This document shows positions 39,692-53,536 of a stretch of 64,000 bases of DNA, one piece after another (the first letter of the stretch is position 1; each line of letters begins with the position of its first letter). The notes beneath the pieces are model-generated. The model had not been told where the DNA came from. It made no database searches and saw only the letters and a program-made list of their open reading frames with translations. Source of the stretch: Patescibacteria group bacterium (lineage in GTDB: Bacteria > Patescibacteriota > Microgenomatia > Levybacterales > UBA12049); contig DATICB010000020.1 in the NCBI GenBank assembly GCA_035457005.1, positions 2,109 to 66,108 on the forward strand. The letters are read 5' to 3'. The position numbers were made by a program, and so were the translations under genes.

Positions 39692-39766
39692 TCTTGCATA
39701 GGGCAATTGAGCCTGGAGAATAACTTAAGCACTAAACTCTTAGCTCTTTGCTATACTGAAAGTATT

Positions 39767-40834
39767 ATGGATTTACAGCAATTATTAGAATTAGTTGTTA
39801 AAAGCAATGCATCGGATTTGCATTTATTGCCTGGACTTCCTCCGGCAATTCGTGTTGATGGTAATTTGTCCTATGTTGCGCAGGTTGCTGTTTTAAGCTC
39901 TGAAAGTGTGACGAGCATGCTTTTTGGGCTTTTGAGTGCCGAGCAGAAAGATTTGCTCACTGCAAATAAAGAGCTTGATTTTTCTATGCCGTATGGTGGC
40001 GGTATTTATGGAGACTTAGGACGTTTTCGTGTCAATGCATACTACCAACGGGGGCAATTATGCGGGGCGTTTCGTTTTTTGCCCAAAACAATTAAAACAA
40101 TTGAAGATTTACATTTGCCACGAATTTGTCACACATTTGCAAATTTACGCCAGGGATTTGTTTTGGTAACAGGCCCAACAGGACAAGGAAAATCAACAAC
40201 TCTCGCCTCAATGGTAAATGAAATTAATATGACGCGGGCAAATCATATTTTAACGATTGAGGATCCAATTGAATATGTGTACCCCAATGGAAAAAGTATT
40301 ATTTCTCAGCGCGAAATGAAATCAGACACTCATTCGTGGACTATGGCACTTCGTTCCTCTTTACGTGAAGATCCAGATGTTGTCTTAATTGGTGAAATGC
40401 GTGATCCTGATACCATGCAGGCAGCAATGACCATTGCAGAGACTGGTCATTTGGTGTTGTCGACACTCCATACAAATTCTGCATCACAATCAATAGACAG
40501 AATTATTGATAGCTTCCCTGAGCATCAACAAACCCAAATTCGCACGCAGCTTTCATTTACCTTAAAAGGCATTATTTCGCAAAGACTTATTCCACAAATT
40601 TCTGGAGGAAGAATTCCAGCTGTTGAAATCTTAGTCGGTACGCCTGCGGTAGCAAGTAATGTGCGAGATGGAAAAACGCATTTGATTGATTCTATTATCC
40701 AAACATCACAAGATGTCGGCATGGTAACACTTGATAATTCTCTTTCACAACTTGTTTTGTCTGGAGCTATTAGTCTTGATACGGCAAAATCCTACAGCTT
40801 GCACCCTGAAGAACTTCTGAGAATGGTGGGATAA
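39767..40834 (+). CDS. pilT: type IV pilus retraction ATPase PilT
   Basis: start at MDLQQLLEL; Walker A VTGPTGQGKSTTL; PilT-type C-terminus; no zinc-finger. Confidence 0.9.
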   Translation: MDLQQLLELVVKSNASDLHLLPGLPPAIRVDGNLSYVAQVAVLSSESVTSMLFGLLSAEQKDLLTANKELDFSMPYGGGIYGDLGRFRVNAYYQRGQLCGAFRFLPKTIKTIEDLHLPRICHTFANLRQGFVLVTGPTGQGKSTTLASMVNEINMTRANHILTIEDPIEYVYPNGKSIISQREMKSDTHSWTMALRSSLREDPDVVLIGEMRDPDTMQAAMTIAETGHLVLSTLHTNSASQSIDRIIDSFPEHQQTQIRTQLSFTLKGIISQRLIPQISGGRIPAVEILVGTPAVASNVRDGKTHLIDSIIQTSQDVGMVTLDNSLSQLVLSGAISLDTAKSYSLHPEELLRMVG

Positions 40835-40865
40835 AAAGCAGAGTTTCACTTTTTATTCGTTTTCT

Positions 40866-42068
40866 ATGAAAATACAATACCGCGCAACCAACAAAGAGGG
40901 AAAAGTTACCCAAGGCGTTTTGGAAGCAAAAGACGTGAACGAGGCAGTTGGGTTTTTGCGTACCAACGGCATGCTTCCTTTGTCTGTGAGAGAAATGACC
41001 TCACAAGGGTTTTCTTTTTCGGCTCTTTTTCAAAAATCCTCAACACAAGATTTAGTTTTATTTACCAGACAATTGTCATCTATTCTTTCTTCGGGACTGA
41101 CGCTTATGCAGGCTTTGAATATTTTAAAAGAGCAGGTGCAGAATCCGCAGATGAAACAAATTGTTGAAAGCCTTATTGCCGATGTGCAGGAAGGAAAAAC
41201 ATTTGCCGATGCTATTGCAAAATACCCAAAAATTTTTAACCCAATTTATATTTCTCTTATCCGTGCTGCAGAATCATCTGGTTTTTTAGACAAAGTGCTG
41301 CTTCGTTTGGCAGACAATTTGGAAAAACAGCAAAAATTAGCAAGTACCATAAAATCAGCCTTAGCATATCCGATTATCGTTATCGTCCTTATGATCGTTG
41401 TCATGTTTGTCATGATGATTTTTGTCATCCCACAACTGACAGTTTTGTACCAAAACTTGAATATCCCCCTCCCCTTTACTACCCAGGTTATGGTTGCAGT
41501 TTCTAATTTTACGATTGGATTTTGGCCGCTGATTCTTGGCATGGTTATTCTTATTGGGGTTGCCTATAATAGGTGGCTTAAAACAGAATCAGGAAAACTA
41601 ATTACTGACAGTATTAAGCTGAAATTGCCGGTTTTTGGTGTGTTGATTAGAAAAACGATCATGGCTGAGTTTTCTCGAACCTTTGGTTTGTTGGTTGGCG
41701 CAGGAACGCTTGTGGTACAATCTCTTAACGAGTCAGCAGACACAACAGGAAATGTTATTTATCGAAGTGCAATTCAGGAAATTGCGAAACGCGTTGAAAA
41801 AGGTATTTCAATTGGTGATGCCATGGCAGCGTTTGATATTTTCCCACCAATTCTTATTCAAATGGTAAAAATTGGCGAGCAAACAGGAAAATTAGATGAG
41901 TCGCTTTTAAAAGTTTCAGAATATTTTGAACGCGAAGTTGATGGGACGGTGAAGACACTGACAACCGCGATGGAACCATTTATTATGATTATTTTGGGAA
42001 TTGGCGTTTCGTTTCTCATTATTTCTATCATCACGCCAATTTACAACCTGACATCAAGCATCCAATAA
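40866..42068 (+). CDS. pilC: type IV pilus platform protein PilC (GspF family)
   Basis: 400 aa, two GspF repeats, 3-4 TM segments. Confidence 0.9.
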   Translation: MKIQYRATNKEGKVTQGVLEAKDVNEAVGFLRTNGMLPLSVREMTSQGFSFSALFQKSSTQDLVLFTRQLSSILSSGLTLMQALNILKEQVQNPQMKQIVESLIADVQEGKTFADAIAKYPKIFNPIYISLIRAAESSGFLDKVLLRLADNLEKQQKLASTIKSALAYPIIVIVLMIVVMFVMMIFVIPQLTVLYQNLNIPLPFTTQVMVAVSNFTIGFWPLILGMVILIGVAYNRWLKTESGKLITDSIKLKLPVFGVLIRKTIMAEFSRTFGLLVGAGTLVVQSLNESADTTGNVIYRSAIQEIAKRVEKGISIGDAMAAFDIFPPILIQMVKIGEQTGKLDESLLKVSEYFEREVDGTVKTLTTAMEPFIMIILGIGVSFLIISIITPIYNLTSSIQ

Positions 42069-42195
42069 AGACAGTTCGGAAATCTGGCTTGATACTGTGG
42101 AATCTAATTTACTCACAGATGTGTACTTTTTCGAATTTGCAGCAAGTTGGGATCTTGACAAGGTGAAAAAAAGTGTGTTTAACTTAATTAGAGTC

Positions 42196-42747
42196 ATGAT
42201 TAACCTGTCCAAACTTTTCAAAAGTTTTCATTCGTCACCTATCTCCCTTCAATCGGGCTTTACCCTTATCGAACTTCTTGTTGTTATTGGTATTTTAGGT
42301 GTTTTGGCAGCAGCACTGGTCGCAACGATTGATCCTTTCGAGCAGCTTAAAAAAGCAAATGACGCGAATGTCAAAAATACTGCAGTTGAATTTATTGATG
42401 CAAATATTCGCTACTACACGACGCATAGTCACATGCCATGGGCACCAGGTGGATGCAATGCAGGCAACGACCCATCGAGTCTTTCGTTGTACCCAGACCT
42501 TACAACGTGTATGAGTAGTTTGGTAGCAGATGGCGAGGTCAAGACTGCCTTCACGACTGTCACTGGAGTGCTCAGTTCGATCATTATTAATGGGACAGAT
42601 ACAGACATTACTGCTTGCTTCTTACCACAATCAAAAGCGCAAAGGTCTGATCCAAATACGAAATTTGACAGGAATGGCGTAGAAATTGCGAATCCATCTT
42701 CCACATGCGGACCAACATCGACTGCCTGCTACTGGTGTTCACAATAA
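42196..42747 (+). CDS. type IV pilin (candidate major pilin)
   Basis: class III signal ...SLQSG|FTLIELLVVIGILGVLAA with Glu+5; C-terminal Cys pair; first structural gene after pilC. Confidence 0.8.
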   Translation: MINLSKLFKSFHSSPISLQSGFTLIELLVVIGILGVLAAALVATIDPFEQLKKANDANVKNTAVEFIDANIRYYTTHSHMPWAPGGCNAGNDPSSLSLYPDLTTCMSSLVADGEVKTAFTTVTGVLSSIIINGTDTDITACFLPQSKAQRSDPNTKFDRNGVEIANPSSTCGPTSTACYWCSQ

Positions 42748-42756
42748 GCCCTTTTC

Positions 42757-44793
42757 ATGCTCTCGTTTTTTAAAAAAAACATCCTGCCCGTTATATTAGG
42801 TAGTGGTTTTTTGCTGCTATACATCTCACACCTTTCAGTAAGTGTCTATGGAGGAGATGTTGGCGACCTGGTTACTGCTGCAGCTGTTGGTGGCGTTGCT
42901 CATCCACCAGGTTATCCTCTCTTTACTTTTCTTGGGTTTTTGCTAACAAAGACTGCTGTTGCATCAATCTCTCCTGCTTTTGCAGTGGGATTGATTTCTG
43001 CATTTTCGGCAGCAGCTGGTGTTGTGGGATTTTATCTGCTCATGTTGCAGTTGACCAAAAGTAAATACGCATCACTAATTGCGTCATTAACCCTTGGTTT
43101 CTCTTTCCTCTATTGGTTTTATGCAGAAATTGCCGAAGTTTTTGCCCTTAACATTTTTTTGGCAATTTTGCTTTTTCTTTTTGCAATTGTCTATAAAAAT
43201 ACAAAAAAGAATATTTTTCTTTATGTCTTTGTTTTTTTCTTAGGGTTATCATGCACAAATCACCAAACCATTATCTTTGTTATTCCATCGACTCTTTTTA
43301 TTGTCGCCAAAACAGCATATAAAGAAGTGAAAAAACGACCGAAATCCATACTGTTTTGTTTTCTTTTGTTTTTATTTGGACTCACTCCATTTTTATATAT
43401 TCCTATTGCCTCTTCTTTCCATCCTATTATCAACTGGGACAGCGTGCATGATGTGTCAACATTTTTACATTTAATTCTTCGCAAAGACTATGGCACATTT
43501 CAGGCAGGAATTTTTGACACTCCAACCCTGTCGCAGCGCTTGGTAACAGTTGCTGTGTACCTGAAATCACTGGTGATTCAAAGTACTATCCCGGTTATTG
43601 TCTTAACGCTTTTTGGCTACTATAAACTTTATAGAAAAGATAAGACTATTTTTCTCTCACTTGCTGTTGCGTGGTTTTTGTCTGGGCCATTATTTCTTTT
43701 TTATGCAGGATTTCCTTTAACAAGTGAATTTATTATTGGCGCATATGAGCGTTTTACTCTGCTCTCGTCAATTATTTTTCTCATTCCTTTTGGCGTTGGT
43801 CTTTTGGAATTTTCAACATTATTGACAAAACTGTTACCAAAAAGAAATTATGAGAAAATTTTTCTTTCTGTTTTTCTTTTAATTCCTCTTATGCTTTTTT
43901 TCTATAATTTTCCCAAAACAAACCTCCGCTCAGTCTCTATCGGCGATACATATGCAAAAGATTTTTTACAAGTATTGCCAAAGAATTCGGTGTTGCTTAT
44001 TTCTGGAGACACGCAAATTTTTAATACGTGGTATATGTATTACGTATTGCATGTTCGTCCAGATATTCTCCTGTACAATATCGGCGCAACACCAGTAACA
44101 CAAAATGAAATCGCACAAAAACTGCAAGGAGTATCATCAAAAAATAGAACAGATACATTAATAAAAATTGTCGAAACTATGCAAAGGACAAGACCAATTT
44201 TTTCTACAACACGATTTCAATCAAAAAAAGGGGCAGCTATTACGTGGGTACCATATGGACTAACATACCAAATGTATTTATCTGGTGATAGTATTCCTGA
44301 TAAAAAAAATTATGAAAATACTTTAGATACGGTTTGGTCGCACATGCACGTACCGCCTTCCCAAGATATGGAAAATCCTGCTAATCATAGCTTAACAATA
44401 GTTGGTATTCCTACTGATTACAGTAATGCACTTATTGCTGCTGGAACTTTTGTTTACTCACAATACAAAGATATACAGAAAACCATTTTGCTCTACAAAC
44501 AGGCCGTTGCTGCCTCGCCATCAAACGGAAAAGCCTACAGTGCGCTGGGTGTTGTATATACAGGAATACCGGGCATGTGCAATGAAGCAGTTGCAAATTT
44601 TTCTCAATCTTTGGCAATTGATGCGTATCAAGAGCTACCTTACTTTCTTTTATACAATGAATATATTGCTTGTTTCAAAGATAATAAAAGAGCAGATGAA
44701 GTAAGTAAGGCGTACGAAGAATTATTTAAAAAAGATTTTCAAAAAGAAATAAAAAAATCACAGGATTCACTAAGCTCTATTTCGAATAATTAA
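42757..44793 (+). CDS. DUF2723/TMEM260-like GT-C membrane glycosyltransferase with C-terminal TPR repeats
   Basis: 678 aa; N-terminal signature YGGDVGDLVTAAAVGGVAHPPGYPLF matches the DUF2723 consensus GD.GEL....G.AHPPGYPL; about 11 TM helices; soluble C-terminal TPR-like region. Confidence 0.7.
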   Translation: MLSFFKKNILPVILGSGFLLLYISHLSVSVYGGDVGDLVTAAAVGGVAHPPGYPLFTFLGFLLTKTAVASISPAFAVGLISAFSAAAGVVGFYLLMLQLTKSKYASLIASLTLGFSFLYWFYAEIAEVFALNIFLAILLFLFAIVYKNTKKNIFLYVFVFFLGLSCTNHQTIIFVIPSTLFIVAKTAYKEVKKRPKSILFCFLLFLFGLTPFLYIPIASSFHPIINWDSVHDVSTFLHLILRKDYGTFQAGIFDTPTLSQRLVTVAVYLKSLVIQSTIPVIVLTLFGYYKLYRKDKTIFLSLAVAWFLSGPLFLFYAGFPLTSEFIIGAYERFTLLSSIIFLIPFGVGLLEFSTLLTKLLPKRNYEKIFLSVFLLIPLMLFFYNFPKTNLRSVSIGDTYAKDFLQVLPKNSVLLISGDTQIFNTWYMYYVLHVRPDILLYNIGATPVTQNEIAQKLQGVSSKNRTDTLIKIVETMQRTRPIFSTTRFQSKKGAAITWVPYGLTYQMYLSGDSIPDKKNYENTLDTVWSHMHVPPSQDMENPANHSLTIVGIPTDYSNALIAAGTFVYSQYKDIQKTILLYKQAVAASPSNGKAYSALGVVYTGIPGMCNEAVANFSQSLAIDAYQELPYFLLYNEYIACFKDNKRADEVSKAYEELFKKDFQKEIKKSQDSLSSISNN

Positions 44794-44796
44794 TTT

Positions 44797-45960
44797 ATGG
44801 AAAAAAGTACAAAAGAAATTCTTCTTCTTATTTTTTCTGTAAAAGTAAGTATCTTTCTTCTGATTTTTCTTGCATATTCATTATTGCCTTTTTCAACAAA
44901 ATTTTATTTTCCAAATTTTATATATCCGCCTAAGGCGTCAATTTCTCTGGCAACCGCCTACAAAACGTGGGATGCACAGCACTATCTTTTTCTGAGTGAA
45001 AAATGGTATCAAAAAAATGAGGATTCTGATGCATTCCCTCCTCTTTTTCCATTTACTATCTTTGTTGCAACTCTTATTACGCGAAGTAGCTTTATTTCAG
45101 GACTTTTACTTTCCAATATATTTTCTTTTATTGCTTTTTACCTTTTTTATGTATTTGTTAAAAAACAATACTCTGAAAAAATTGCTTATAGAAGTTTGTT
45201 ATTTCTTCTTGCCTTTCCCACTGCATTTTATTTTTCTCTTATCTATACAGAAAGTATTTTTCTCCTCATAGTTATAATTTTCTTTATGTATTTACAACAG
45301 AAAAAACTTTTTCTAGCTGCTGTTGCGGCATTTTTTTTACCAATGTCACGACTTATCGGAATAGCAATTAGCATTCCATTTTTATTTTCTTATATTTTGC
45401 ATTACCACGGCCATTCGGTATATGACGAACTTTCTTCTATTGGAAAATCATTACTGCAAAAAAAGAGTTTGCTACTTTTCTCCCCTTTTTTTGGACTTGG
45501 GATAGTCATGTGCATGTTTTACATTACAACAGGAAGCTTTTTTACACAGTTTAGCGCACAACAGAATTATATTTCACAATACTCTCTTTTCTCGATTTTT
45601 AATCCAATTTTTTTTCTCCGAGCACTCTTTGCTTTTCCATTAGCACTACATGGTTTTACCAATTCTCTTTTGGATAGATTATTTTTTGTCTTTTTTATCT
45701 TTATTCTCTTTTTTCTTTACAAAAGAGTTTCAAAAATACTTTTTATCTACACACTTTGTTTTGGAATTCTGCCTGTCTTGAGTGGAAGTTTTATGTCGTA
45801 CATGAGATATTTGGTTATTGTTTTCCCCATTTTTATTTGTCTTGCAAAACTCTCTTTAGAGGAAAAATATAGAAAATACACATTCCCTTTTTTATTTTTT
45901 TCAATTTTTTTACAAACATTATTTATCATTATGCATAGCTTAAATTATTGGGTTTCGTAA
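44797..45960 (+). CDS. GT-C mannosyltransferase-like membrane protein (PIG-V/GT76-like)
   Basis: 387 aa polytopic protein; first loop KTWDAQHYLFLSEKWYQK...AFPPLFPF resembles the PIG-V family motif WD..hYl.IA..GY...aFfPlyP. Confidence 0.5.
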   Translation: MEKSTKEILLLIFSVKVSIFLLIFLAYSLLPFSTKFYFPNFIYPPKASISLATAYKTWDAQHYLFLSEKWYQKNEDSDAFPPLFPFTIFVATLITRSSFISGLLLSNIFSFIAFYLFYVFVKKQYSEKIAYRSLLFLLAFPTAFYFSLIYTESIFLLIVIIFFMYLQQKKLFLAAVAAFFLPMSRLIGIAISIPFLFSYILHYHGHSVYDELSSIGKSLLQKKSLLLFSPFFGLGIVMCMFYITTGSFFTQFSAQQNYISQYSLFSIFNPIFFLRALFAFPLALHGFTNSLLDRLFFVFFIFILFFLYKRVSKILFIYTLCFGILPVLSGSFMSYMRYLVIVFPIFICLAKLSLEEKYRKYTFPFLFFSIFLQTLFIIMHSLNYWVS

Positions 45961-45961
45961 T

Positions 45962-46732
45962 ATGATATATTTTTTACTTTTTCTTTTCGGTGTCTGTTTT
46001 GGATCATTCCTTAATGTCCTCATCGATAGAATTCCTGCTGGAAAATCAGTACTCTTTGGGCGCTCACAGTGTGATTTTTGTAAAAAACAGTTGGGAATTT
46101 TTGACCTTATTCCAGTAATTTCTTATGTTTTCCTTTTAGGAAAATGCCGATATTGTAAGAAAAAACTTTCTTTGCAATACCCAATGATAGAGGTTTTAAC
46201 AGGTTTTTTATTCGTTTTTCTATTTTTCTTAGAAATGCCCATAACATTTATCCAGTTTCAACTCTTTTTAATAGACATCTTTTTAGTAAGCATGGGATTT
46301 GCGCTTACTATAATGGACATAAAATATCATCTTTTGTCAGATAAGCTTCTTGTTGTTTTTGGATTTTTTGCACTTTTACGAATAAGCATTCTGAGTCCTC
46401 AGGCACTCCCCTTTTCTTTTCTTGTGGGACTGCTTGCAACGTTGCCATTATTTCTTATTTTCTTTTTTTCAAAAGGAAAAGGAATGGGTTTTGGTGATGT
46501 TAAACTTATCGGAATTTTAGGTTTTTTACTTGGATTTCCCAATATTATTTTGTGTTATTACATCGCTTTCTTGACAGGCGCTGTAGCGGGCGTCATACTC
46601 ATTTTAGGAGGGAAAAAGAAATTGCATAACTCTGTTATTGCATTTGGACCGTTTCTTTTTCTTGGCGCCTTCATTACATACTTTTTTGAAAACACATTAT
46701 GGCAATACGCAAAAATCTTCTTAGGCTTTTAA
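45962..46732 (+). CDS. pilD: prepilin peptidase PilD (A24 family)
   Basis: tetracysteine CDFC...CRYC zinc motif, catalytic Asp regions (GFGDVKLIG). Confidence 0.9.
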   Translation: MIYFLLFLFGVCFGSFLNVLIDRIPAGKSVLFGRSQCDFCKKQLGIFDLIPVISYVFLLGKCRYCKKKLSLQYPMIEVLTGFLFVFLFFLEMPITFIQFQLFLIDIFLVSMGFALTIMDIKYHLLSDKLLVVFGFFALLRISILSPQALPFSFLVGLLATLPLFLIFFFSKGKGMGFGDVKLIGILGFLLGFPNIILCYYIAFLTGAVAGVILILGGKKKLHNSVIAFGPFLFLGAFITYFFENTLWQYAKIFLGF

Positions 46733-47478
46733 AAACTCTCAAGAGCAACAATGGATTTACCCTTATAGAACTGATTGTCGTCATTGCGATTTTGGGCATT
46801 CTTCTTATTAGCCTCATTACCACATTTAATCCATTGGCTCAGTACAACAAGGCAGCAGATGGAACAAGGGAACATGACTTGGGACAAATTCAACGGGCTC
46901 TGGATACGTATTTTAACGATACTGGTTGTTATCCAACAACATTAACATTTGGAAGCAAATGGTCTTCTGGTAGTCAGGTATACATGGAAAAAGTGCCACA
47001 GGATTTGAATTGTGCAAAGGATCCAAACAAATGTTATGTCTATGAAACAGATACGTCAACCAGTTGTCCACAATGGAATGTGCTCTATGCGTCACTGCAA
47101 AGTAGTGCTATCCCCTCGCAAGCATGTCCGCTCACGACCCGTTCGTTATGTGTCCCAAGTAATTTTAGTTCATCAAATTACAATTATTGCGTTACCTCCG
47201 GAGGTATCGATTGTGCTGTTATTGCAGGGTTTACTCTTCCATCAGCAACAGGAGGGAACAGCGGCGGAAGTGGTGGCAATGGCGGAGGGGGAAGCAGCGG
47301 TGGTAATAATGGCGGGGGCGGCAATGGTCCAATTACGTGTGCAAGTGGACAATACTATGGATGTACGGGAGATAACCGTTGTAACAGCATATCCCCATCT
47401 TCGCAATGTAGTCAAAATGGCGGTTCTGTTTTCTGTTATTGCGACAATCACTGTAATCAAAGTTGTCAATTCAATTAA
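46699..47478 (+). CDS. type IV pilin with Gly/Ser-rich linker and Cys-rich (10 Cys) C-terminal domain
   Basis: leader ...KSNNG|FTLIELIVVIAILGIL; low-complexity GGNSGGSGGNGGGGSSGGNNGGGGNG region. Confidence 0.8.
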   Translation: MAIRKNLLRLLKTLKSNNGFTLIELIVVIAILGILLISLITTFNPLAQYNKAADGTREHDLGQIQRALDTYFNDTGCYPTTLTFGSKWSSGSQVYMEKVPQDLNCAKDPNKCYVYETDTSTSCPQWNVLYASLQSSAIPSQACPLTTRSLCVPSNFSSSNYNYCVTSGGIDCAVIAGFTLPSATGGNSGGSGGNGGGGSSGGNNGGGGNGPITCASGQYYGCTGDNRCNSISPSSQCSQNGGSVFCYCDNHCNQSCQFN

Positions 47479-47480
47479 GC

Positions 47481-48050
47481 ATGAAATACACATATCAAAA
47501 TGGGTTTACCCTTATTGAGCTTATTGTCACGATTGGTATTTTGGCTGTGTTGGCTGTGTTGGCACTTGCGACACTTAATCCGTTGCAGCAATTTAGGAAA
47601 GCACGGGATGGCGAGAGAAAATCTGACTTGGCACAATTACAGCGGGTGCTTGAGCAGTATTATCAGGATCATGGCAGTTATCCCAAAAGCAGTGTGTCTA
47701 ATACTATCACTGATTTTAATGGCAACAGTGTTGTTTGGGGAGGGTCATCTGGGTGGGCTCCCTACATGAATCTTGTTCCAAAAGATCCTGACTCAAGTAG
47801 AACCTATGTCTATTATGCTGCAGGTACAACGCCACAATCATACAAGTTATTTAGCAGTCTCGAAGTTGGCCCCAATGATCCACAAACATGTAAGGCAGAT
47901 GTTGCAAATTGCCAGAATAATCCAACAAGTGTGCCGTACTGTACGTGTGGCGGAGTTCCTGCTGGAGTAGACTGTGGAGCAAATGGCGTGCATTACCCCT
48001 GCAATTATGGTGTTTCCAGTCCTAATACAACACCTGATAGCTCGCAATAA
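47481..48050 (+). CDS. type IV pilin
   Basis: short leader MKYTYQNG|FTLIELIVTIGILAVLAVLAL; Cys-containing C-terminus. Confidence 0.8.
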   Translation: MKYTYQNGFTLIELIVTIGILAVLAVLALATLNPLQQFRKARDGERKSDLAQLQRVLEQYYQDHGSYPKSSVSNTITDFNGNSVVWGGSSGWAPYMNLVPKDPDSSRTYVYYAAGTTPQSYKLFSSLEVGPNDPQTCKADVANCQNNPTSVPYCTCGGVPAGVDCGANGVHYPCNYGVSSPNTTPDSSQ

Positions 48051-48051
48051 G

Positions 48052-48564
48052 ATGTGGTACGATACGTATATGCACAAATATTTAGATAATTTTCAAAGAA
48101 AATTCTCACAACAATCAGGTTTTACTCTTATCGAGCTACTTATTGTTATTGCTATTATCGGAATTCTGTCAACACTTCTCATGACTAATTTTATTGGCGT
48201 TCGCCAGCGTGCCCGTGACGCACAGCGCAAATCAGATGTGCGTCAAATGCAGTCCGCATTGGAGTTATACAGATCAGATACAGGAAGTTATCCTGTTTCT
48301 GATTCGAATAATCGACTCAATGCAACAGCATGCACAACTTCATCGGGATTTACCAGTACCGATGGAGGGACAACGTATATGCAAAAAGTTCCCTGTGACC
48401 CATTAGGGACAAGTGCGTATCATTCAGGAAATTATTACTACAATAGTAGCGGTACGACATACACGATATATGCATGTTTGGAAAATACATCTGATTCGCA
48501 AGGCACTTCCCTATCTAATACCGGCTGTAGCACTGATTTCTTATACGTTGTAACGAATCCATGA
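48052..48564 (+). CDS. type IV pilin
   Basis: ...QQSG|FTLIELLIVIAIIGILSTLL; start immediately after upstream stop. Confidence 0.75.
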   Translation: MWYDTYMHKYLDNFQRKFSQQSGFTLIELLIVIAIIGILSTLLMTNFIGVRQRARDAQRKSDVRQMQSALELYRSDTGSYPVSDSNNRLNATACTTSSGFTSTDGGTTYMQKVPCDPLGTSAYHSGNYYYNSSGTTYTIYACLENTSDSQGTSLSNTGCSTDFLYVVTNP

Positions 48565-49163
48565 CCAGCACCGCGTCTTCCAGACAGTCAGGTTTTACCC
48601 CGATTGAATCTGGGTTTACCCTTATTGAGCTAATTATTGTTTTTTCAGTCATTACCGTACTCTCTTCGCTTGGTGTTGCTTCGTTTGTTGCATACAGCAG
48701 GTCTCAGACTATTGATACTGCAATGAAAGATTTTAAAAGTGTGTTATTTACCGCCAGGTCAAGAGCTCTTTCTCAGCTTCGTGATAGCACATGTTTTTCA
48801 AGTGGGTTTGACGGACAAGGATATGAATTGGAAGGATACCAGGTGGTTGCATGCTGCTCATTTGGGCCACTGTGCTCGTCTGTTCAGTGCAACACTGTGT
48901 CAAATAGTTATGAATTGCAGGCAGTCTATGGGTATCCCGATGGATCGGGACGAGTTGCGCAAACATGTTTGAGTAAAAAATTTGCAGATCCCAATATTGG
49001 TGTCAGTAGCTCAAATAAAACAACAGCAACGTATTTTTTCTTTTCCTCAGTAACTGGTGCAGTGACGACCAATGCCTCATCTGGGCAGCTCCCACAGATT
49101 GAATTCAGTGGCTATGGTATTACGAAATTAGCAACTGTTTCTGCGACAGGAGTTGTGCAATGA
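48561..49163 (+). CDS. type IV pilin with duplicated N-terminal cleavage motif
   Basis: MTSTASSRQSGFTPIESGFTLIELIIVFSV...; ATGA overlap with upstream gene. Confidence 0.75.
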   Translation: MTSTASSRQSGFTPIESGFTLIELIIVFSVITVLSSLGVASFVAYSRSQTIDTAMKDFKSVLFTARSRALSQLRDSTCFSSGFDGQGYELEGYQVVACCSFGPLCSSVQCNTVSNSYELQAVYGYPDGSGRVAQTCLSKKFADPNIGVSSSNKTTATYFFFSSVTGAVTTNASSGQLPQIEFSGYGITKLATVSATGVVQ

Positions 49164-49705
49164 GACATTTTCTTACAAGCCAATCGGGACAAACACTGAT
49201 TGAAGTACTGGTCGCACTAACTGCGGGTGTTGTGATTATTGCTGCAATTGTCAGTGCGTCGCTCAACGCATTGACGAATAGTAATTTTGCGAGAGATCAG
49301 AATATCGCTGCGCAATATACGCAGTCTGGTATAGAAATTATCCGTGATATGAGAAATGAAAGTATTGCATCGCTGAGCGCATCGTATCTGTCTGACAACA
49401 CGTATTGTTTGGCAAAATCATGCAGTGCATTGGATAATCAAATCCCTTCGTGTTGGATAAAAAGCGGAAATTGTGGCCAAAATGTAGATAAATTTGTTCG
49501 CGAAGTTGTTGTTGCACATGATTCATCTGATTGTAACGCAAGTCCCACGCCAAATGGTCAGCAAGGATTTTTATCATCCAATGTCAAAGTAACAGTAACA
49601 ACATTTTGGTATGATTCACGTTGTACCGATTCGAGTAATGCATTTTGTCACTCAGTTACGCTGTCATCATGTTTTTCTGATTTTACTATTGCACCAACGC
49701 CATGA
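49160..49705 (+). CDS. minor pilin / pseudopilin-like
   Basis: ...SQSG|QTLIEVLVALTAGVVIIAAI; ATGA overlap. Confidence 0.65.
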   Translation: MRHFLTSQSGQTLIEVLVALTAGVVIIAAIVSASLNALTNSNFARDQNIAAQYTQSGIEIIRDMRNESIASLSASYLSDNTYCLAKSCSALDNQIPSCWIKSGNCGQNVDKFVREVVVAHDSSDCNASPTPNGQQGFLSSNVKVTVTTFWYDSRCTDSSNAFCHSVTLSSCFSDFTIAPTP

Positions 49706-50268
49706 AACAAATCTCAAATCTCAAATCACAAAACCCAAATCATAAATCCAAAATCATCAATCAAAGTGGATTTACGCTCATTGAAATGCTCGCGGTTATC
49801 ATTATCTTTATTGTTGTTGGAACAATTGCTGTCAGTATTCTTGTTACGTCATTTCGCACGTCTACCAAAACAGATGTCGTGACTGCGGTGCAAAATAATG
49901 GAAATTATGCATTGTCTCAAATGGCTAAAACAATACGCGATGCACGAGGACTCGTAACCCCTTTCCCCTGTTCTCCAACGGTTGTTGCAAATACCATTAG
50001 TATTACCACTCCTGACAATCAAGAAGTTACGTATGCATGTGGCAATTCGACAATTGCGTCAAATGGTGCAAGTTTGCTTGATACAACACAGGTTGCTGTG
50101 CAGGCATGTTCGTTTACCTGTAGTCAGGATAGTAAATCGGATTTGCCAGTTATTCTTATTGCCTTTTCGCTCTTGCAAAAATCATCGAGCAGTTTTGCCG
50201 AACAAAAGGCATCACAAAGCGCGGTATTCTTCCAAACCTCCATTGGTATTCGAAATATTAATAGATAA
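49702..50268 (+). CDS. minor pilin-like with long basic leader
   Basis: MKQISNLKSQNPNHKSKIINQSG|FTLIEMLAVIIIF; leader encoded by a degenerate 7-nt tandem repeat. Confidence 0.7.
   Translation: MKQISNLKSQNPNHKSKIINQSGFTLIEMLAVIIIFIVVGTIAVSILVTSFRTSTKTDVVTAVQNNGNYALSQMAKTIRDARGLVTPFPCSPTVVANTISITTPDNQEVTYACGNSTIASNGASLLDTTQVAVQACSFTCSQDSKSDLPVILIAFSLLQKSSSSFAEQKASQSAVFFQTSIGIRNINR
49708..49763 (+). repeat. degenerate heptanucleotide tandem repeat (about 8 units of CAAATCT)
   Basis: caaatct caaatct caaatca caaaacc caaatca taaatcc aaaatca tcaatca, within the 5' coding region of the 49702 pilin. Confidence 0.7.
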
Positions 50269-50306
50269 CGATTGACACCTGCGTATGCTCCTTATATGCT
50301 AGATAT

Positions 50307-51188
50307 ATGCGTACCAATTTCTCTGGGAAATTTTCCGTTGGTCAGTCAGGACAAGCGCTTCTTATTGTTGTGTTGGTCATGGTGATTGCGCTCACCGTTG
50401 GTCTCTCTCTTGCATCAAGAAGTATTACCACGCTTCGTAATTCCACTGATGAGGCAGCGTCTCAAGCGGCATTTTCTGCTGCAGAAGCAGGTGTTGAGCA
50501 AGCAGTAAAATTAGGAGATGTCAGCGGTGCATCGATTTTATCTGGTGTCTCATTGCATGATAAGAATAATTCGCAAATTAGTAGTGTTGATATCTCGCTT
50601 ATCGATGGAAGCCAATTTCTTTTGAATAATGGCAATCCAATTTTCCAGGACGATGGTACCGATATTTGGCTTTCTTCGCATACCGATGACCCCTCGCAAC
50701 TTTTCCAAACAGCATGGAATGGGACATTATTTGTTCATTGGGGAACAAATACCGATACATGTGCAGATCCTGCAATGGAAATTCTGGTTATTTCAGGGAC
50801 TCGGGTAAGTCCAACACTCGCACGATATACGTTTGATTCATGTGCAACAAGGCGAAGTGTGAATTCTTTTTGTGCTATTGCTGCAGGAGGCGCGTGTCCA
50901 AGTTCTGCAGCCGGAGGTTTTGTCGTTAATGGTATTAATGGCAGTCAAACATTTAATTACCGAGTACAACTCCCTATTACTAATGGACTTCTTGCACGGG
51001 TTGTTCCTTTATATAAAGCTGGAAGCATTGGTATTAAAGGCGCAGGACTTCCAATACAAGGAAAAATTATTACCTCTACCGGAACAGCTGGTGTTACCAA
51101 CTCGCAAACAGTAAGAAAAGTAAGTTTTTTCCAAGGGTATGACAGTGTTCCGTCAGAATTTTTCTATTCTCTTTTTCAACCAAAATGA
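50307..51188 (+). CDS. PilX_N-domain minor pilin / pilus tip-associated protein
   Basis: GQALLIVVLVMVIALTVGLSLASRS...AFSAAEAGVEQA matches the PilX N-terminal domain pattern. Confidence 0.65.
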   Translation: MRTNFSGKFSVGQSGQALLIVVLVMVIALTVGLSLASRSITTLRNSTDEAASQAAFSAAEAGVEQAVKLGDVSGASILSGVSLHDKNNSQISSVDISLIDGSQFLLNNGNPIFQDDGTDIWLSSHTDDPSQLFQTAWNGTLFVHWGTNTDTCADPAMEILVISGTRVSPTLARYTFDSCATRRSVNSFCAIAAGGACPSSAAGGFVVNGINGSQTFNYRVQLPITNGLLARVVPLYKAGSIGIKGAGLPIQGKIITSTGTAGVTNSQTVRKVSFFQGYDSVPSEFFYSLFQPK

Positions 51189-52213
51189 CAAAACAAAAAG
51201 CATTCGGACTAGACATAGGAACACATAGTATAAAAGCTGTCTGGCTTGCAAAAGACCAACGTGGATTTTTTCTCCAATCTGCTCTCACTATGCCCGCTCC
51301 TCAGCGGGGTATGTTGTCTGAATCCCCTCTTGATCAGGAAGAAATGGCAAGAGCAATCAGGACTCTTCTCGATGAAGCAAAAATTTCGACAAAATATGTC
51401 AATGTCGCCTTACCTGAAAACCAAGTGTATACAAAAGTCATCGAAATCCCGACGCTCTCTGATAAAGAATTGGCTTCGGCAATTTACTGGGAGGCCGAGC
51501 AATACATTCCTGTCCCCCTGACGACCATAACGCTTGATTATAAAGTTATTTCTCGTCCACAAACAAAAGCAGCAGGAAACACTATGCGTGTGTTATTGGT
51601 TGGTGCACCAACGGTACTGATTGAAAAATATGAAAAAGTTTTGGGAACAGCAGGACTCATGCTTAATGCAGTGGAGACAGAAATCATTTCTCTCACTCGT
51701 GCGGCAGTTACTGACAATCAGTTTCCAGCAACGCTTATTGTGAATATTGGCGCCATGAGTACGTCTTTGGCAATTATCAAGAATGGTGAACTTGTCTTTA
51801 CCTATTCCCTTGCAACAGGAGGCGTAGCAATTTCCCGGGCAATCGCTGCGGATTTGGGGTTTGCCCTGGCACAAGCTGAGGAATACAAAAAAACGTATGG
51901 GTTAGCAGATAGCGCGTTGGGTGGAAAGTTGGGTAAAGTAACTGAGCCGATTCTCTCTAGTATTCTTACAGAAGTAAGAAAGTCGCTATCTTTCTACAGC
52001 ACAAAATACACCAATGATCCAATAAAACAAATTATTTTGTCTGGTGGATCGGCCAAACTTCCTGGTTTGGCAACCTACTTTACATCCAATACTGGTGTTG
52101 AAACAGCAATTATTAATCCTTGGAAATTACTTATTCCCCAAGAAGTACCAAAAGATATTATTGATAATGCACCAGAGTATGCAATTGCTGCAGGTCTTGC
52201 AATGAGAGACTAG
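51185..52213 (+). CDS. pilM: type IV pilus assembly protein PilM (actin-like ATPase)
   Basis: GLDIGTHSIKAV phosphate-1 motif, 342 aa. Confidence 0.9.
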   Translation: MTKQKAFGLDIGTHSIKAVWLAKDQRGFFLQSALTMPAPQRGMLSESPLDQEEMARAIRTLLDEAKISTKYVNVALPENQVYTKVIEIPTLSDKELASAIYWEAEQYIPVPLTTITLDYKVISRPQTKAAGNTMRVLLVGAPTVLIEKYEKVLGTAGLMLNAVETEIISLTRAAVTDNQFPATLIVNIGAMSTSLAIIKNGELVFTYSLATGGVAISRAIAADLGFALAQAEEYKKTYGLADSALGGKLGKVTEPILSSILTEVRKSLSFYSTKYTNDPIKQIILSGGSAKLPGLATYFTSNTGVETAIINPWKLLIPQEVPKDIIDNAPEYAIAAGLAMRD

Positions 52214-52214
52214 T

Positions 52215-52748
52215 ATGGCTGATATTAATCTACTTATCCAAAAACATCAGGGATTTTTCTCTGAAGACAGACTTTTGCTTTTTTCAAAAGTAGGAGCAAT
52301 AAGTGGCGTCGTGCTTGTTTTGTCTCTTTCAATTCTTTTTTTTCTTTTAAGTCGTGATCCCTCTATTGCACAGGTAAAAGCAGATGAAACAAGAACAATT
52401 GCGCAGTTGACGCTTTTGCAAAGTAAGACAGCAAAATATCTTATTGTGGTAGACAGAATTCAAAAAATTAAAGCAATTGAAAAAAACAAGACAACTTTTG
52501 CTGACACTATTTCTTCATTTGTTGGTCTTATCCCTGGTGGCGCAACAATTACCAACTTTACTTTGGATAAGCACACACTTTCTCTCGCCGTGTCTGCGTC
52601 TGACTTATCGCTTTTGGGAAAAGCAGTCGATAACTTTACATCGCTTGTTTTGCAGAAAAAAATCCTTAAAAATCTGAGCATTCAGGGACTTGTTTCAGAT
52701 GAAAAAGGTGGCAAATATGTCTTAACGCTCTCAGGAGATTTACTATGA
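52215..52748 (+). CDS. pilN: PilN-like pilus assembly protein
   Basis: MADINLL N-terminus, single TM helix, follows pilM by 1 nt. Confidence 0.65.
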   Translation: MADINLLIQKHQGFFSEDRLLLFSKVGAISGVVLVLSLSILFFLLSRDPSIAQVKADETRTIAQLTLLQSKTAKYLIVVDRIQKIKAIEKNKTTFADTISSFVGLIPGGATITNFTLDKHTLSLAVSASDLSLLGKAVDNFTSLVLQKKILKNLSIQGLVSDEKGGKYVLTLSGDLL

Positions 52749-53536
52749 ATACAAATAGCAAAGTGACCATGAACCAACTGGTTTTTCGAAATCTCTATTT
52801 CAGGTATCGAGATTTTATTACACCAGTAAGCACGATATGTGTTTGCATACTGTTGTTTTGGTTTGTGGTAATTCCACAAATGCAGAGCTGGTTTGCGCTT
52901 CGTAACGACCTAACGGTCAACATTCAAGACGTGGGAATTATGCATCAAAACTTGTCATTTCTCACCAAGCTCGACGATGCAGCGCTGTCTACCATGTTGA
53001 CAACAGCAACAAGCGCGTTGCCTGCAGATAAAGATTTTGCTGGTATTGTTGCATCTATTCAAAATGCCGCAGCTGTTTCTGGTGCAACATTGGGTGATTA
53101 CTCTTTTCAATTGGGAGATTTGGCGGGACTGGATCAGAATGGCAAACCATCACAGTTGCCAGTGCAGTTAAATATTGTTTTAAAAGGAGATATTACGGAT
53201 GCACAGCGTTTTGCAGCACAGCTAAAAAAACAATTACCCTTATCAGATGCCATTGCTATCTCGGTGAGTGCAAATCAGTCAATTACAGTAACAGTTGTTT
53301 TTTATTATGCGCAGATTCCTAAAATTGTTTTTCAGGACACAAGACCACTGCCTCTTTTAAGTAAAACCGACCAACAGCTACTTAATAGTCTTGCCAGTGG
53401 TAATAATCTGCAAAATGCAGAGCTTTCTACGCCAGGAGCAAGTGTTTCTGCAACACCAACGCCTGCAGTTAGTCTCGCACCAACACCAACAATTGTGATT
53501 TCCCCTTCGCCAACAGGAACAGCAAGTGCGCAGTAA
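52745..53536 (+). CDS. pilO: PilO-like pilus assembly protein with Thr/Pro/Ala-rich C-terminal tail
   Basis: single TM helix, coiled region, position after pilN with ATGA overlap. Confidence 0.55.
   Translation: MNTNSKVTMNQLVFRNLYFRYRDFITPVSTICVCILLFWFVVIPQMQSWFALRNDLTVNIQDVGIMHQNLSFLTKLDDAALSTMLTTATSALPADKDFAGIVASIQNAAAVSGATLGDYSFQLGDLAGLDQNGKPSQLPVQLNIVLKGDITDAQRFAAQLKKQLPLSDAIAISVSANQSITVTVVFYYAQIPKIVFQDTRPLPLLSKTDQQLLNSLASGNNLQNAELSTPGASVSATPTPAVSLAPTPTIVISPSPTGTASAQ

Follow-up and report, generated by a model that had tools for sequence, protein, structure and literature searches.

A conserved pilin-gene set from a Levybacteria-type Patescibacterium, in a probable type IVa-like pilus operon

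Introduction

The type IV pilus (T4P) loci of Saccharibacteria encode pilin sets with accessory domains (PMC11623550), and modular pilins have been described as widespread, CPR lineages included (PMC8179133). The core minor pilins are encoded by four consecutive single-copy prepilin genes in Pseudomonas aeruginosa (fimU-pilV-pilW-pilX), in the T2SS (gspH-I-J-K) and in Bacillus (comGD-GE-GF-GG), and the same arrangement is found in the locus described here. This locus lies in a 64,000-nucleotide stretch of DNA, hereafter the window, from an uncultured, ultrasmall Levybacteria-type Patescibacterium (CPR). We read positions 46699-50268 and the neighbouring genes as belonging to one chromosomal operon for a type IVa-like pilus, of which they form the pilin-gene block, with a probability of roughly 80%. 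The six-gene block is an ordinary, strongly conserved pilin set, not a system of recombination-driven variation.

Results

The operon is encoded on the + strand in the order pilB-pilT-pilC-pilA0-[two GT-C genes]-pilD-g1-g2-g3-g4-g5-g6-g7X-pilM-pilN-pilO, and is flanked by housekeeping genes (trmD, rnc, recG, tyrS, a PBP and gyrB). It starts with the motors and platform, pilB (T2SSE plus MshEN), pilT and pilC (T2SSF), at 37754..42068. These were assigned by domain matches, the domain scan of the operon giving T2SSE with MshEN, a second T2SSE, T2SSF and peptidase A24. The prepilin peptidase gene pilD (45962..46732) matches A24_N_bact (4.2e-32) and Peptidase_A24 (8.9e-13). The operon ends with the alignment-complex genes pilM, pilN and pilO (51185..53536). 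We identified pilM through related loci, 80 in each of two collections, and its relatives in genome contigs (80 loci) were nearly all labelled Levybacteria, Microgenomates or Patescibacteria; in the contig of a closely related strain (L081), the called pilM product matches Pfam PilM_2 and FtsA. The genes pilN and pilO, which have no Pfam match, were assigned by conserved position. The locus has no PilY1-like gene.

Two genes for GT-C-type membrane glycosyltransferase-like proteins are encoded between pilA0 and pilD (42757..45960, +; PF11028, PF13231). The first (42757-44793) is TMEM260-like with TPR (PF11028, 1.2e-22), and the second (44797-45960) has a weak PMT_2 match (PF13231, 0.0013, under its cut-off). 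GT-C genes occupy this position in just 17/80 and 7/80 of the related loci. Both are candidate enzymes for pilin O-glycosylation.

The first-pass annotation of this DNA had described six consecutive genes with a class III signal peptide, and a total of eight pilin-class genes. Our analysis bears out both statements: in the six + strand genes (g1 to g6) such a peptide precedes a hydrophobic alpha1N, the cleavage motif being G|FTLIE[LM] in five of them and G|QTLIEV in g5, and the other two genes are pilA0 (42196-42747) and the PilX_N-like g7X (50307-51188). A motif scan of the window retrieved exactly seven G-x-x-x-x-E pilins, every one in this locus and none elsewhere in the 64 kb. All eight genes encode prepilin leaders, with PilD encoded alongside, and their identity as pilins is supported by N_methyl and TIGR02532 matches, with T2SSG over its cut-off for g2 and g3. 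The junctions are less uniform than the four ATGA or similar overlaps initially described, since only three in the array are ATGA overlaps (g3/g4, g4/g5 and g5/g6). The genes g1/g2 and g2/g3 are 2 nt and 1 nt apart, and pilD overlaps g1 by 34 nt. The ATGA overlap is kept among orthologs in 30/63 cases for g3/g4, 32/63 for g4/g5 (four as GTGA) and 41/66 for g5/g6.

The gene pilA0 (42196..42747, +), directly 3' of pilC, has the leader MINLSKLFKSFHSSPISLQSG|FTLIEL, 6 Cys and an N_methyl match over the cut-off (30.9 bits). Its sequence and 5' DNA are better conserved than those of any other pilin, the first 90 nt having 91% nucleotide identity to the related loci L001 and L008. Position and conservation make it the probable major pilin. 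The genes g1, g2 and g3 are paralogs and encode pilins of the GspG fold: the similarity of g2 is 42% to g1 over 137 aa and 35% to g3 over 164 aa, and the likeness of the three runs on through the globular domain. T2SSG and N_methyl are matched by both g2 (47481..48050, +; MKYTYQNG|FTLIEL, 6 Cys; T2SSG 33.0 and N_methyl 32.0 bits, both over cut-offs) and g3 (48052..48564, +; 4 Cys; T2SSG 31.8 and N_methyl 33.9 bits; TIGR01710 GspG, 4.5e-18).

Domain matches, an AF2 model and a family of 38 homologs with a common architecture identify g1 (46699..47478, +) as a modular pilin. Its 19-aa leader is followed by a GspG-like pilin domain, a Gly-rich linker (about residues 185-210, nt 47251-47328) and a C-terminal module of roughly 46 residues (residues 211-259, nt 47329-47475). 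The Gly-rich spacer had been recognised at first pass, but the C-terminal domain, then described as knot-like and credited with 10 Cys, has 8 in the last 46 residues; the other eight of the 16 Cys are in the pilin domain. The model has a mean pLDDT of 85.4, with values under 50 in the linker (185-208) and about 87-92 in the module, which reaches 80.5 when modelled alone. The module matched no Pfam family, PDB sequence or known fold, and Foldseek of the g1 model returned weak pilin matches alone (E above 0.4). Among 1.84 billion representatives, the module family was confined to the C-terminal end of pilins of 230-280 aa. The module is small, lineage-specific and unclassified. Related loci have g1 as an optional gene; its relatives have PT-rich linkers of 24-67 residues, and module type differs among orthologs, being swapped or lost between lineages. 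We suggest that g1 polymerises via its pilin module and would display the disulfide-rich 8-Cys module on the disordered linker. The module would most likely be an add-on binding ligands or host surfaces. Related lineages have other small Cys modules or larger domains in its stead, or have lost it.

The next four genes were classed by sub-threshold HMM matches, largely in the N-terminal helix, together with gene order; profiles of their orthologs matched PDB sequences in alpha1N alone. The gene g4 (48561..49163, +; 6 Cys; ATGA overlap with g3) is of the GspH/FimU/PpdA/ComGD class: 34/34 orthologs match GspH (best 3.8e-11) and the PpdA-like PRK10506 (best 4.4e-14), all under curated cut-offs, and there is a weak match to FimU (4ipu, E 0.015). 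The GspI/PilV/ComGE-class g5 (49160..49705, +; 8 Cys; ATGA overlap with g4) matches TIGR02523 PilV (9.5e-06), and its 44 orthologs match PilV (33), ComGE (24) and GspI (23), all under cut-offs. The class of g6 (49702..50268, +; 4 Cys; N_methyl 25.4 bits; ATGA overlap with g5) is mostly positional (GspJ/PilW/ComGF): its 46 orthologs match GspH (28), ComGF (21) and GspJ (3), and their scan gave no specific GspJ/PilW signal. The g6 leader is coded by an imperfect heptamer repeat (49707-49756). Finally, g7X (50307..51188, +; 293 aa, 4 Cys, G|QALLIV), at the GspK/PilX/ComGG position, lacks Glu5 and is of the PilX_N type (37/46 orthologs, best 3.2e-06; 16.9 bits in the window against a cut-off of 25.5). 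It follows a 38-nt gap, a gap of more than 10 nt being present here in 60/68 loci, and has an ATGA overlap with pilM.

From these sequence features, we read g4-g7X as a putative GspH/I/J/K-type set for priming and for the tip, with translation coupled via ATGA overlaps. By analogy with GspH-I-J-K, FimU-PilV-PilW-PilX and ComGD-GG, g4 to g7X would form a complex that initiates the filament at the PilC/PilMNO platform and is then carried to the pilus tip, with g7X, lacking Glu5, as the capping subunit. The shaft would be built by pilA0, possibly with g2 and g3; PilB would extend the pilus and PilT retract it. The family-wide overlaps would couple translation and yield minor pilins in matched, low amounts.

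The locus is conserved well beyond this genome. The single-copy block g4-g5-g6-g7X is in fixed order in 76/82 related loci, preceded by GspG-like pilins (0 to 4 copies over the 82, with the most distant loci reaching six g3-like genes), and every window gene has a positional ortholog, one-to-one. The first-pass annotation had taken the shared 5' blocks as substrates for recombination and gene conversion among the pilins, with shuffled C-terminal cassettes as a check, and had itself named uniform arrays in related genomes as grounds against this. The outcome tells against the proposal: the layout is alike over the 82 loci, and the first 90 nt of the pilin genes group by ortholog, not by genome. 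In strain L081 (99.14% identity) the layout of the array is unchanged; there are 60 SNPs, which we counted as 55 synonymous and 5 non-synonymous, and neither indels nor chimeras. This points to purifying selection, with no rearrangement from strain to strain.

The 20-mer behind this proposal, GGGTTTACCCTTATTGAGCT, occurs exactly twice, as was claimed, at 47502 and 48612 (4-6 nt from where it had been placed). Copies with 3 mismatches are found at 42256, 46753 and 48118 (none expected in shuffled sequence), but the supposed close variant at 49768 has 5. The g2 copy (47502..47521, +) codes GFTLIEL and has 2 synonymous differences in strain L081 and 1 in L083. In g4 the cleavage-site block is duplicated in tandem as 21-nt units (48591..48632, +; GFTPIES / GFTLIEL), the second of which contains the 20-mer (48612-48631). 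This duplication is present in L081 and absent from 63/63 g4 orthologs. With peptides fixed and synonymous codons redrawn, the probability that any window pilin pair shares at least 20 nt is 0.02-0.04; the longest shared run has a median of 14 nt in related arrays and reaches 20 nt in 12/57. On both counts, the window run is long enough to fall in the upper tail, without being exceptional.

Could the tandem pilins nevertheless vary on short timescales by conversion or crossover at these blocks, producing chimeras as in Neisseria pilE/pilS? The exact g2/g4 20-mer, the lineage-specific duplication of precisely this block and the variable number of GspG-like pilins, with two identical tandem copies in locus L059, speak for it. 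So do the runs of at least 20 nt, found in 11/56 arrays, where a per-genome synonymous-codon null predicts 0.6, and in register in 10/647 paralog pairs of the same genome, compared with 12/5712 GC3-matched non-ortholog pairs from different genomes (Fisher p = 2e-5), about seven times more often. However, this enrichment replicates only weakly in 18 independent metagenome arrays (0/143 at this length), and the exact 20-mer identity is missing from strain L081 and from the closest species. No shared tract exceeds 25 nt, no cassettes that are silent or truncated were found, and the one G4 motif, inside g2, has no counterpart in the pilin genes of 80 genome-derived related loci. Together with the conserved order, ortholog clustering and synonymous SNPs, this makes rapid variation of the array very unlikely. 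Some exchange between paralogs may still occur, because long identical runs are in excess within genomes, and the data allow, as a weak residual signal, sporadic conversion over tracts no longer than 25 nt. We read the shared blocks as the trace that the universally conserved G|FTLIEL alpha1N peptide leaves in the DNA, permitting at most such occasional tracts and unequal crossing-over, which over evolutionary time would change how many GspG-like pilins there are.

Discussion

DNA uptake has been proposed for patescibacterial pili, and the best HMM names of the pilins are GspG, GspH, GspI and ComGD/GE/GF. Yet a Com-type DNA-uptake pilus or a T2SS-like pseudopilus, in place of an adhesive or motile type IVa pilus, is highly improbable: all these matches are far under equivalog cut-offs, the scanned ORFs of the locus include no secretin, GspC, GspL or GspM, and the operon has a second, PilT-type ATPase and pilM-pilN-pilO, T4aP features that are not known from Com and T2SS operons. 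DNA uptake by a T4aP is conceivable, and would be one function of the pilus and not a different machine.

The type IVa-like operon that we favour resembles Neisseria pilE/pilS in having several pilin-related sequences with common conserved blocks in one genome. It differs from it in that all genes are complete and individually conserved orthologs, without silent 5'-truncated copies, a conserved G4 element or strain-level mosaicism of globular domains.

A second comparison is with the core minor-pilin sets. As in these, the block is downstream of GspG-type pilins, follows the H-I-J-K order by best matches, ends with the largest subunit, which lacks Glu5, and consists of tightly packed, translationally coupled genes. 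The likeness is, however, mostly in the N-terminal helix, with every match under curated cut-offs. In addition, the locus differs in the missing PilY1-like gene, in Cys-rich globular domains (4-8 Cys) and in the place of the block, which is enclosed by pilD and pilM and shares an operon with the motors.

The loci of Saccharibacteria (TM7x) are also patescibacterial, T4aP-like and equipped with pilB/pilT/pilC/pilD/pilMNO; their minor pilins are like T2SS pseudopilins, some with accessory C-terminal domains, and pilin glycosylation is suspected (PMC11623550). In contrast, the present lineage is Levybacteria, and eight pilin genes are in one operon, against about five pilins in TM7x. Compared by description, the accessory domain is here an 8-Cys module of 46 residues that follows a low-complexity linker, in place of a jelly-roll or beta-propeller.

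Modular pilins such as Streptococcus sanguinis PilB (vWA) and PilC (lectin) and CofB of ETEC share with g1 the succession of pilin module, linker and extra C-terminal module (PMC8179133, PMC9934059). The g1 module differs in being tiny, disulfide-rich, unclassified and restricted to this pilin family, and its linker in being long and disordered, with about 25 Gly-rich residues. The expected role is the same, i.e., ligand binding displayed by the filament.

Organisation of the pilin operon

The pilin genes of this region belong to an ordinary type IV pilus operon that is well conserved. The operon forms a single tightly packed unit on the + strand (37754-53536), which starts at 37754 with pilB (T2SSE and MshEN domains), pilT and pilC (T2SSF). 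These are followed by the pilin pilA0 (42196-42747), two GT-C-like membrane proteins, the prepilin peptidase gene pilD (peptidase A24), six consecutive pilin genes (g1 to g6), the PilX_N-like gene g7X, and finally pilM, pilN and pilO. The genes pilD, pilB, pilT and pilC have Pfam matches and lie in the same operon as the pilins. Relatives of pilM were found in both our genome-derived and metagenome-derived collections; pilN and pilO were identified by their conserved position only. The locus encodes the cognate prepilin peptidase and the assembly machinery that type IV pilins require. The operon is flanked by housekeeping genes (trmD, rnc, recG, tyrS, a class A PBP, gyrB and a holB-like gene) and its G+C content is about 40% throughout, so the region belongs to the chromosomal core and not to a mobile element. 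Among contigs representing one genome per species, the PilM relatives were labelled almost exclusively as Levybacteria, Microgenomates or Patescibacteria, the closest showing 88, 77, 73 and 72% identity. In the metagenomes, where we looked for intermediate relatives, PilM identity did not exceed 77%, and the metagenome-derived loci were then used as an independent replication set. The sole Rfam match was a tRNA-Leu, and promoter and terminator motifs were not enriched over shuffled sequences.

Positions 42757-45960, which separate the probable major pilin gene from pilD, encode the two GT-C-like proteins: one is TMEM260-like and ends in a TPR tail, the other weakly matches PMT_2. The GT-C genes were found in just 17 and 7 of 80 related loci, always at the same position. 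In Pseudomonas, TfpW and TfpO adjoin pilA, and by analogy these GT-C proteins may be candidate pilin O-glycosyltransferases.

Gene starts in the array were chosen by inspecting the sequence, which gave g1 at 46699-47478, g2 at 47481-48050, g3 at 48052-48564, g4 at 48561-49163, g5 at 49160-49705, g6 at 49702-50268 and g7X at 50307-51188, all on the + strand. The overlapping stop-starts described in the first-pass annotation occur as ATGA at g3/g4, g4/g5 and g5/g6, but g1 and g2 are separated by 2 nt and g2 and g3 by 1 nt. Further ATGA overlaps were found at g7X/pilM and pilN/pilO, and pilD overlaps g1 by 34 nt. In related loci, 4-nt stop-start overlaps were present at g3/g4 in 30 out of 63 cases, at g4/g5 in 32 out of 63 (including four GTGA), and at g5/g6 in 41 out of 66. 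This conservation across the family argues for translational coupling under selection. In 60 of 68 related loci, g7X is preceded by a gap longer than 10 nt, the other junctions being mostly overlaps. The 38-nt gap of the window (50269-50306) carries a promoter-like TTGACA-17-TATGCT at 50272-50300, and could be a candidate internal promoter or ribosome-loading site. An imperfect heptanucleotide repeat (ACAAATC, about seven copies, 76% match, 49707-49756) encodes the leader peptide of g6, KQISNLKSQNPNHKSKI; gain or loss of a unit would change the reading frame. The repeat has the same length in the closely related strain L081 and is missing in most orthologs.

Identification of the pilins

All genes from g1 to g6 encode pilins, as first annotated: their leaders end in Gly, and a hydrophobic helix with Glu at +5 follows. 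In pilA0 and g1 to g6 the cleavage site (/) reads G/[FQ]TLIE followed by the helix, g5 having GQTLIEV. A six-frame motif scan of the 64 kb found exactly seven class III sites, every one in the operon. The g7X protein (G/QALLIVVLV) keeps the Gly and the hydrophobic helix and lacks Glu5. The PF07963 N_methyl cut-off (21.2 bits) was passed by pilA0, g1, g2, g3 and g6, with g4 (19.5) and g5 (20.0) slightly under; with TIGR02532 (cut-off 16.3), g4 passed (19.1) and g5 failed (14.6). The T2SSG profile (PF08334, gathering cut-off of 21 bits) matched g2 (33.0 bits) and g3 (31.8 bits), whereas g1 scored below the cut-off (13.9 bits). Nevertheless, g1 is paralogous to g2 (BLASTP, 1.7e-23) and g3 (3.1e-19) through the globular domain. 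The Cys count is even in all eight pilins (pilA0 6, g1 16, g2 6, g3 4, g4 6, g5 8, g6 4, g7X 4), which would fit disulfide-bonded extracellular proteins. The eight pilin genes (42196-51188) encode 54 Cys in total. Judging from these counts, extensive disulfide bonding of the pilins seems implied, and would therefore call for an extracytoplasmic oxidative-folding system in a reduced genome.

Recombination among the pilin genes

The 5' sequence blocks shared by the pilin genes had been proposed as substrates for homologous recombination and gene conversion, a proposal that identical organisation in related genomes would contradict. BLASTP against the window proteins served to annotate 80 genome-derived and 34 metagenome-derived loci, and gene order was counted in the 82 in which the interval from pilD to pilM was complete. 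The organisation was indeed largely the same in relatives, the order g4-g5-g6-g7X being kept in 76 of these loci. Upstream of g4 there was one GspG-like pilin in 14 loci, two in 27, three in 37, four in three, and none in one; the number in the window is the modal state. The best match of each window gene occupies the same position in other genomes. Even over the 90 nt that follow the cleavage site, orthologs were more alike (0.57-0.91) than within-genome paralogs (0.33-0.67), g2 being the weakest case. Strain comparison revealed no shuffled cassettes: over 7004 nt, L081 shows no indels and 60 SNPs (99.14% identity). These SNPs (55 synonymous, five non-synonymous) are spread from pilD to pilO, and the two strains show no mosaic variation of the globular domains.

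Searches with the globular domains (tblastn) found just the annotated genes and the paralogy between g1, g2 and g3. We found no silent, promoterless or 5'-truncated cassettes, and every pilin gene has a complete leader. The single canonical G4 motif of the 64 kb, GGGGAGGGTCATCTGGGTGGG, lies on the + strand inside g2 (47737-47757). It was rejected as a recombination initiator, since none of the pilin genes of the 80 genome-derived related loci has a G4 motif, and it is probably a coincidence. Taken together, gene order, orthology, strain comparison, cassette searches and the G4 analysis rule out a pilE/pilS-like system, or cassette shuffling on short or medium timescales. The JGI metagenomes did not contain this strain, and neither the crossover junction expected at the 20-nt block common to g2 and g4 nor the parental variants had a match there.

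This block, which encodes GFTLIEL at the cleavage site, is exactly repeated at 47502 and 48612. Other copies have three mismatches (42256, 46753 and 48118), and the one at 49768 has five. When peptides were fixed and synonymous codons redrawn from the window's own usage, a shared run of at least 20 nt in at least one pair among the seven pilin genes had a probability of 0.02-0.04. The longest shared run in 57 related arrays had a median of 14 nt and reached at least 20 nt in 12 arrays, and the gene pairs with long shared runs vary from genome to genome. The g2/g4 identity is absent from the closest species (L001, longest run of 14 nt). The g2 copy of L081, GGGTTTACTCTTATCGAGCT, has two synonymous differences from the 20-mer, and that of a third strain (L083) has one. 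Because the identity is not kept in these three relatives, and the pairs involved change between genomes, it is a strain-level accident at synonymous sites inside a peptide-constrained block. Conversion of the L081 g2 from pilA0 or g3 was rejected, its variants being the commoner A/T-ending codons.

Support for the recombination reading is limited to a weak signal of homogenisation over short tracts. Runs of at least 20 nt were observed in 11 of 56 arrays, against 0.6 expected under a per-genome synonymous-codon null. Within the first 60 nt, in-register runs of at least 20 nt occurred in 10 of 647 within-genome paralog pairs and in 12 of 5712 GC3-matched between-genome non-ortholog pairs (Fisher p = 2e-5). 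In 18 independent metagenome arrays the trend held at thresholds of at least 15 nt (p = 0.017) and at least 17 nt (p = 0.04), but was not replicated at 20 nt or more (0/143). Shared tracts never exceeded 25 nt, and overall identity over 60 nt was barely higher within genomes (0.583) than between them (0.568). Sporadic micro-conversion could explain the excess of runs, and so could codon-context preferences peculiar to each genome.

The number of GspG-like pilins is variable, with up to six g3-like genes in distant loci. This GspG-like block grows by tandem duplication, whereas the genes from g4 to g7X remain single-copy. In one related locus (L059), two tandem pilin ORFs of 223 aa upstream of pilD are identical over 609 nt, and three distant relatives (L150, L152, L163) encode three to six tandem g3-like pilins. 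A 21-nt tandem block duplication in g4 (48591-48632, GFTPIES-GFTLIEL) is restricted to the window lineage, including L081, and absent from 63 orthologs. Together with the variation in GspG-like number, it would fit occasional slippage or unequal exchange at the blocks. These seven duplicated codons (SGFTPIE-SGFTLIE) create two candidate PilD sites. SNPs between strains (46504-53056 against L081, L082 and L083) fall in tight synonymous clusters, e.g., 11 within 47510-47582. This segment encodes the hydrophobic N-terminal helix (alpha1N) of g2, and L083 is there a mosaic between the window and L081. This pattern suggests allelic recombination among co-existing strains rather than exchange between paralogs.

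The modular pilin g1

The g1 module and its exchange from lineage to lineage are the only features of this well-conserved operon that merit follow-up. The g1 protein is present in NCBI from a Patescibacteria MAG, annotated as 'prepilin-type N-terminal cleavage/methylation domain-containing protein' and nothing further. It does have a Cys-rich C-terminal domain, with eight rather than the ten Cys first reported in its last 46 residues; the other eight of its 16 Cys are in the pilin domain. AlphaFold2 (38 homologs, mean pLDDT of 85.4) predicted a confident pilin lollipop for g1, the one gene modelled, with a long alpha1 helix (22-75) and a beta-sheet head (strands 88-96, 114-117, 126-131 and 163-168) at pLDDT above 90. 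A disordered linker (185-208, pLDDT below 50) leads to the C-terminal module (about 87-92). This architecture is kept in the 38 homologs. Modelled alone, the module gave a beta-hairpin with short helices (pLDDT 80.5) that had no fold match in the PDB, and Foldseek searches of the PDB with the full model returned weak pilin matches only (E above 0.4). The module belongs to no Pfam family: scans of ten variants at E up to 10 gave nothing meaningful. Its profile matched six clusters among 1.84 billion representative proteins, all consisting of 230-280-residue proteins that end with the module; the five members retrieved had g1-like pilin domains. As modelled, g1 is a modular pilin made of a pilin module, a linker and a separate C-terminal module. 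The latter was found in these pilins alone and did not match any domain whose function is defined outside pilus biology.

The linker of the g1 positional orthologs is usually Pro/Thr-rich, not Gly-rich. Their modules are of at least three types (8-Cys, 6-Cys, and a third with CxC), are absent, or come with an extra domain of about 200 residues, and switches occur between fairly close pilin domains. The extra domain (VFVTS..Y.G.L....G.DGAD..C) follows a PT linker in two g1-position pilins (L057:5344-6681 and L074:2411-3565), and in L057 a 6-Cys module comes after it.

Ultrasmall Patescibacteria are believed to rely mainly on type IV pili to attach to host cells and feed on them. To our knowledge, almost nothing is known of these pili outside Saccharibacteria. 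By analogy with other modular pilins, it would be natural to infer a binding role for the g1 module. We give about one chance in five to the reading in which the optional g1 determines host or ligand specificity, its modules forming a new class of small binding domains that lineages exchange like cassettes, with short conserved blocks and low-complexity linkers as joints. As a weaker corollary, micro-conversion at the alpha1N blocks would contribute to the birth and death of GspG-like pilins.

The g4-g7X set and comparison with known systems

The four adjacent genes g4, g5, g6 and g7X are single-copy, and their order is conserved. In scans of ortholog groups, g4 was consistently GspH/PpdA/ComGD-like (34/34), if sub-threshold. 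The matches of g5 (44 orthologs: PilV-like 33, GspI-like 23, ComGE-like 24) were likewise consistent and sub-threshold; those of g6 (46 orthologs: ComGF 21, GspH 28, GspJ 3) were sub-threshold and diffuse, with no specific J-class signal. Orthologs of g7X were PilX_N-like in 37 of 46 cases, the window protein scoring 16.9 bits (cut-off 25.5). Profiles of the four ortholog groups matched PDB sequences only in alpha1N, plus one weak FimU match. Because these profiles saw only the N-terminal helix, we infer rather than establish the assignment of the four genes to the H-I-J-K classes. The absence of Glu5 in g7X is typical of a terminal K/PilX-type subunit.

For the Levybacteria pilus operon, these results provide a template across the phylum, in which GspG-like pilins in variable number precede a fixed set of four putative priming genes. 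The variable component, g1 with its unclassified Cys-rich module, is an obvious candidate for host or substrate recognition. The results also show that comparative evidence is needed before tandem pilin genes with common cleavage-site DNA are taken for a variation system.

The core minor-pilin sets of T2SS and T4aP prime assembly and cap the filament, GspH/I/J/K being equivalent to FimU/PilV/PilW/PilX and to ComGD/GE/GF/GG. The genes from g4 to g7X share with them the H-I-J-K (or D-E-F-G) order, the single copies and the last subunit without Glu5. As for g1, it has the same design as the modular pilins PilB and PilC of S. sanguinis, a design reported to be widespread and to extend to CPR lineages (PMC8179133), and it finds a parallel in the minor pilins with accessory domains of Saccharibacteria (PMC11623550).
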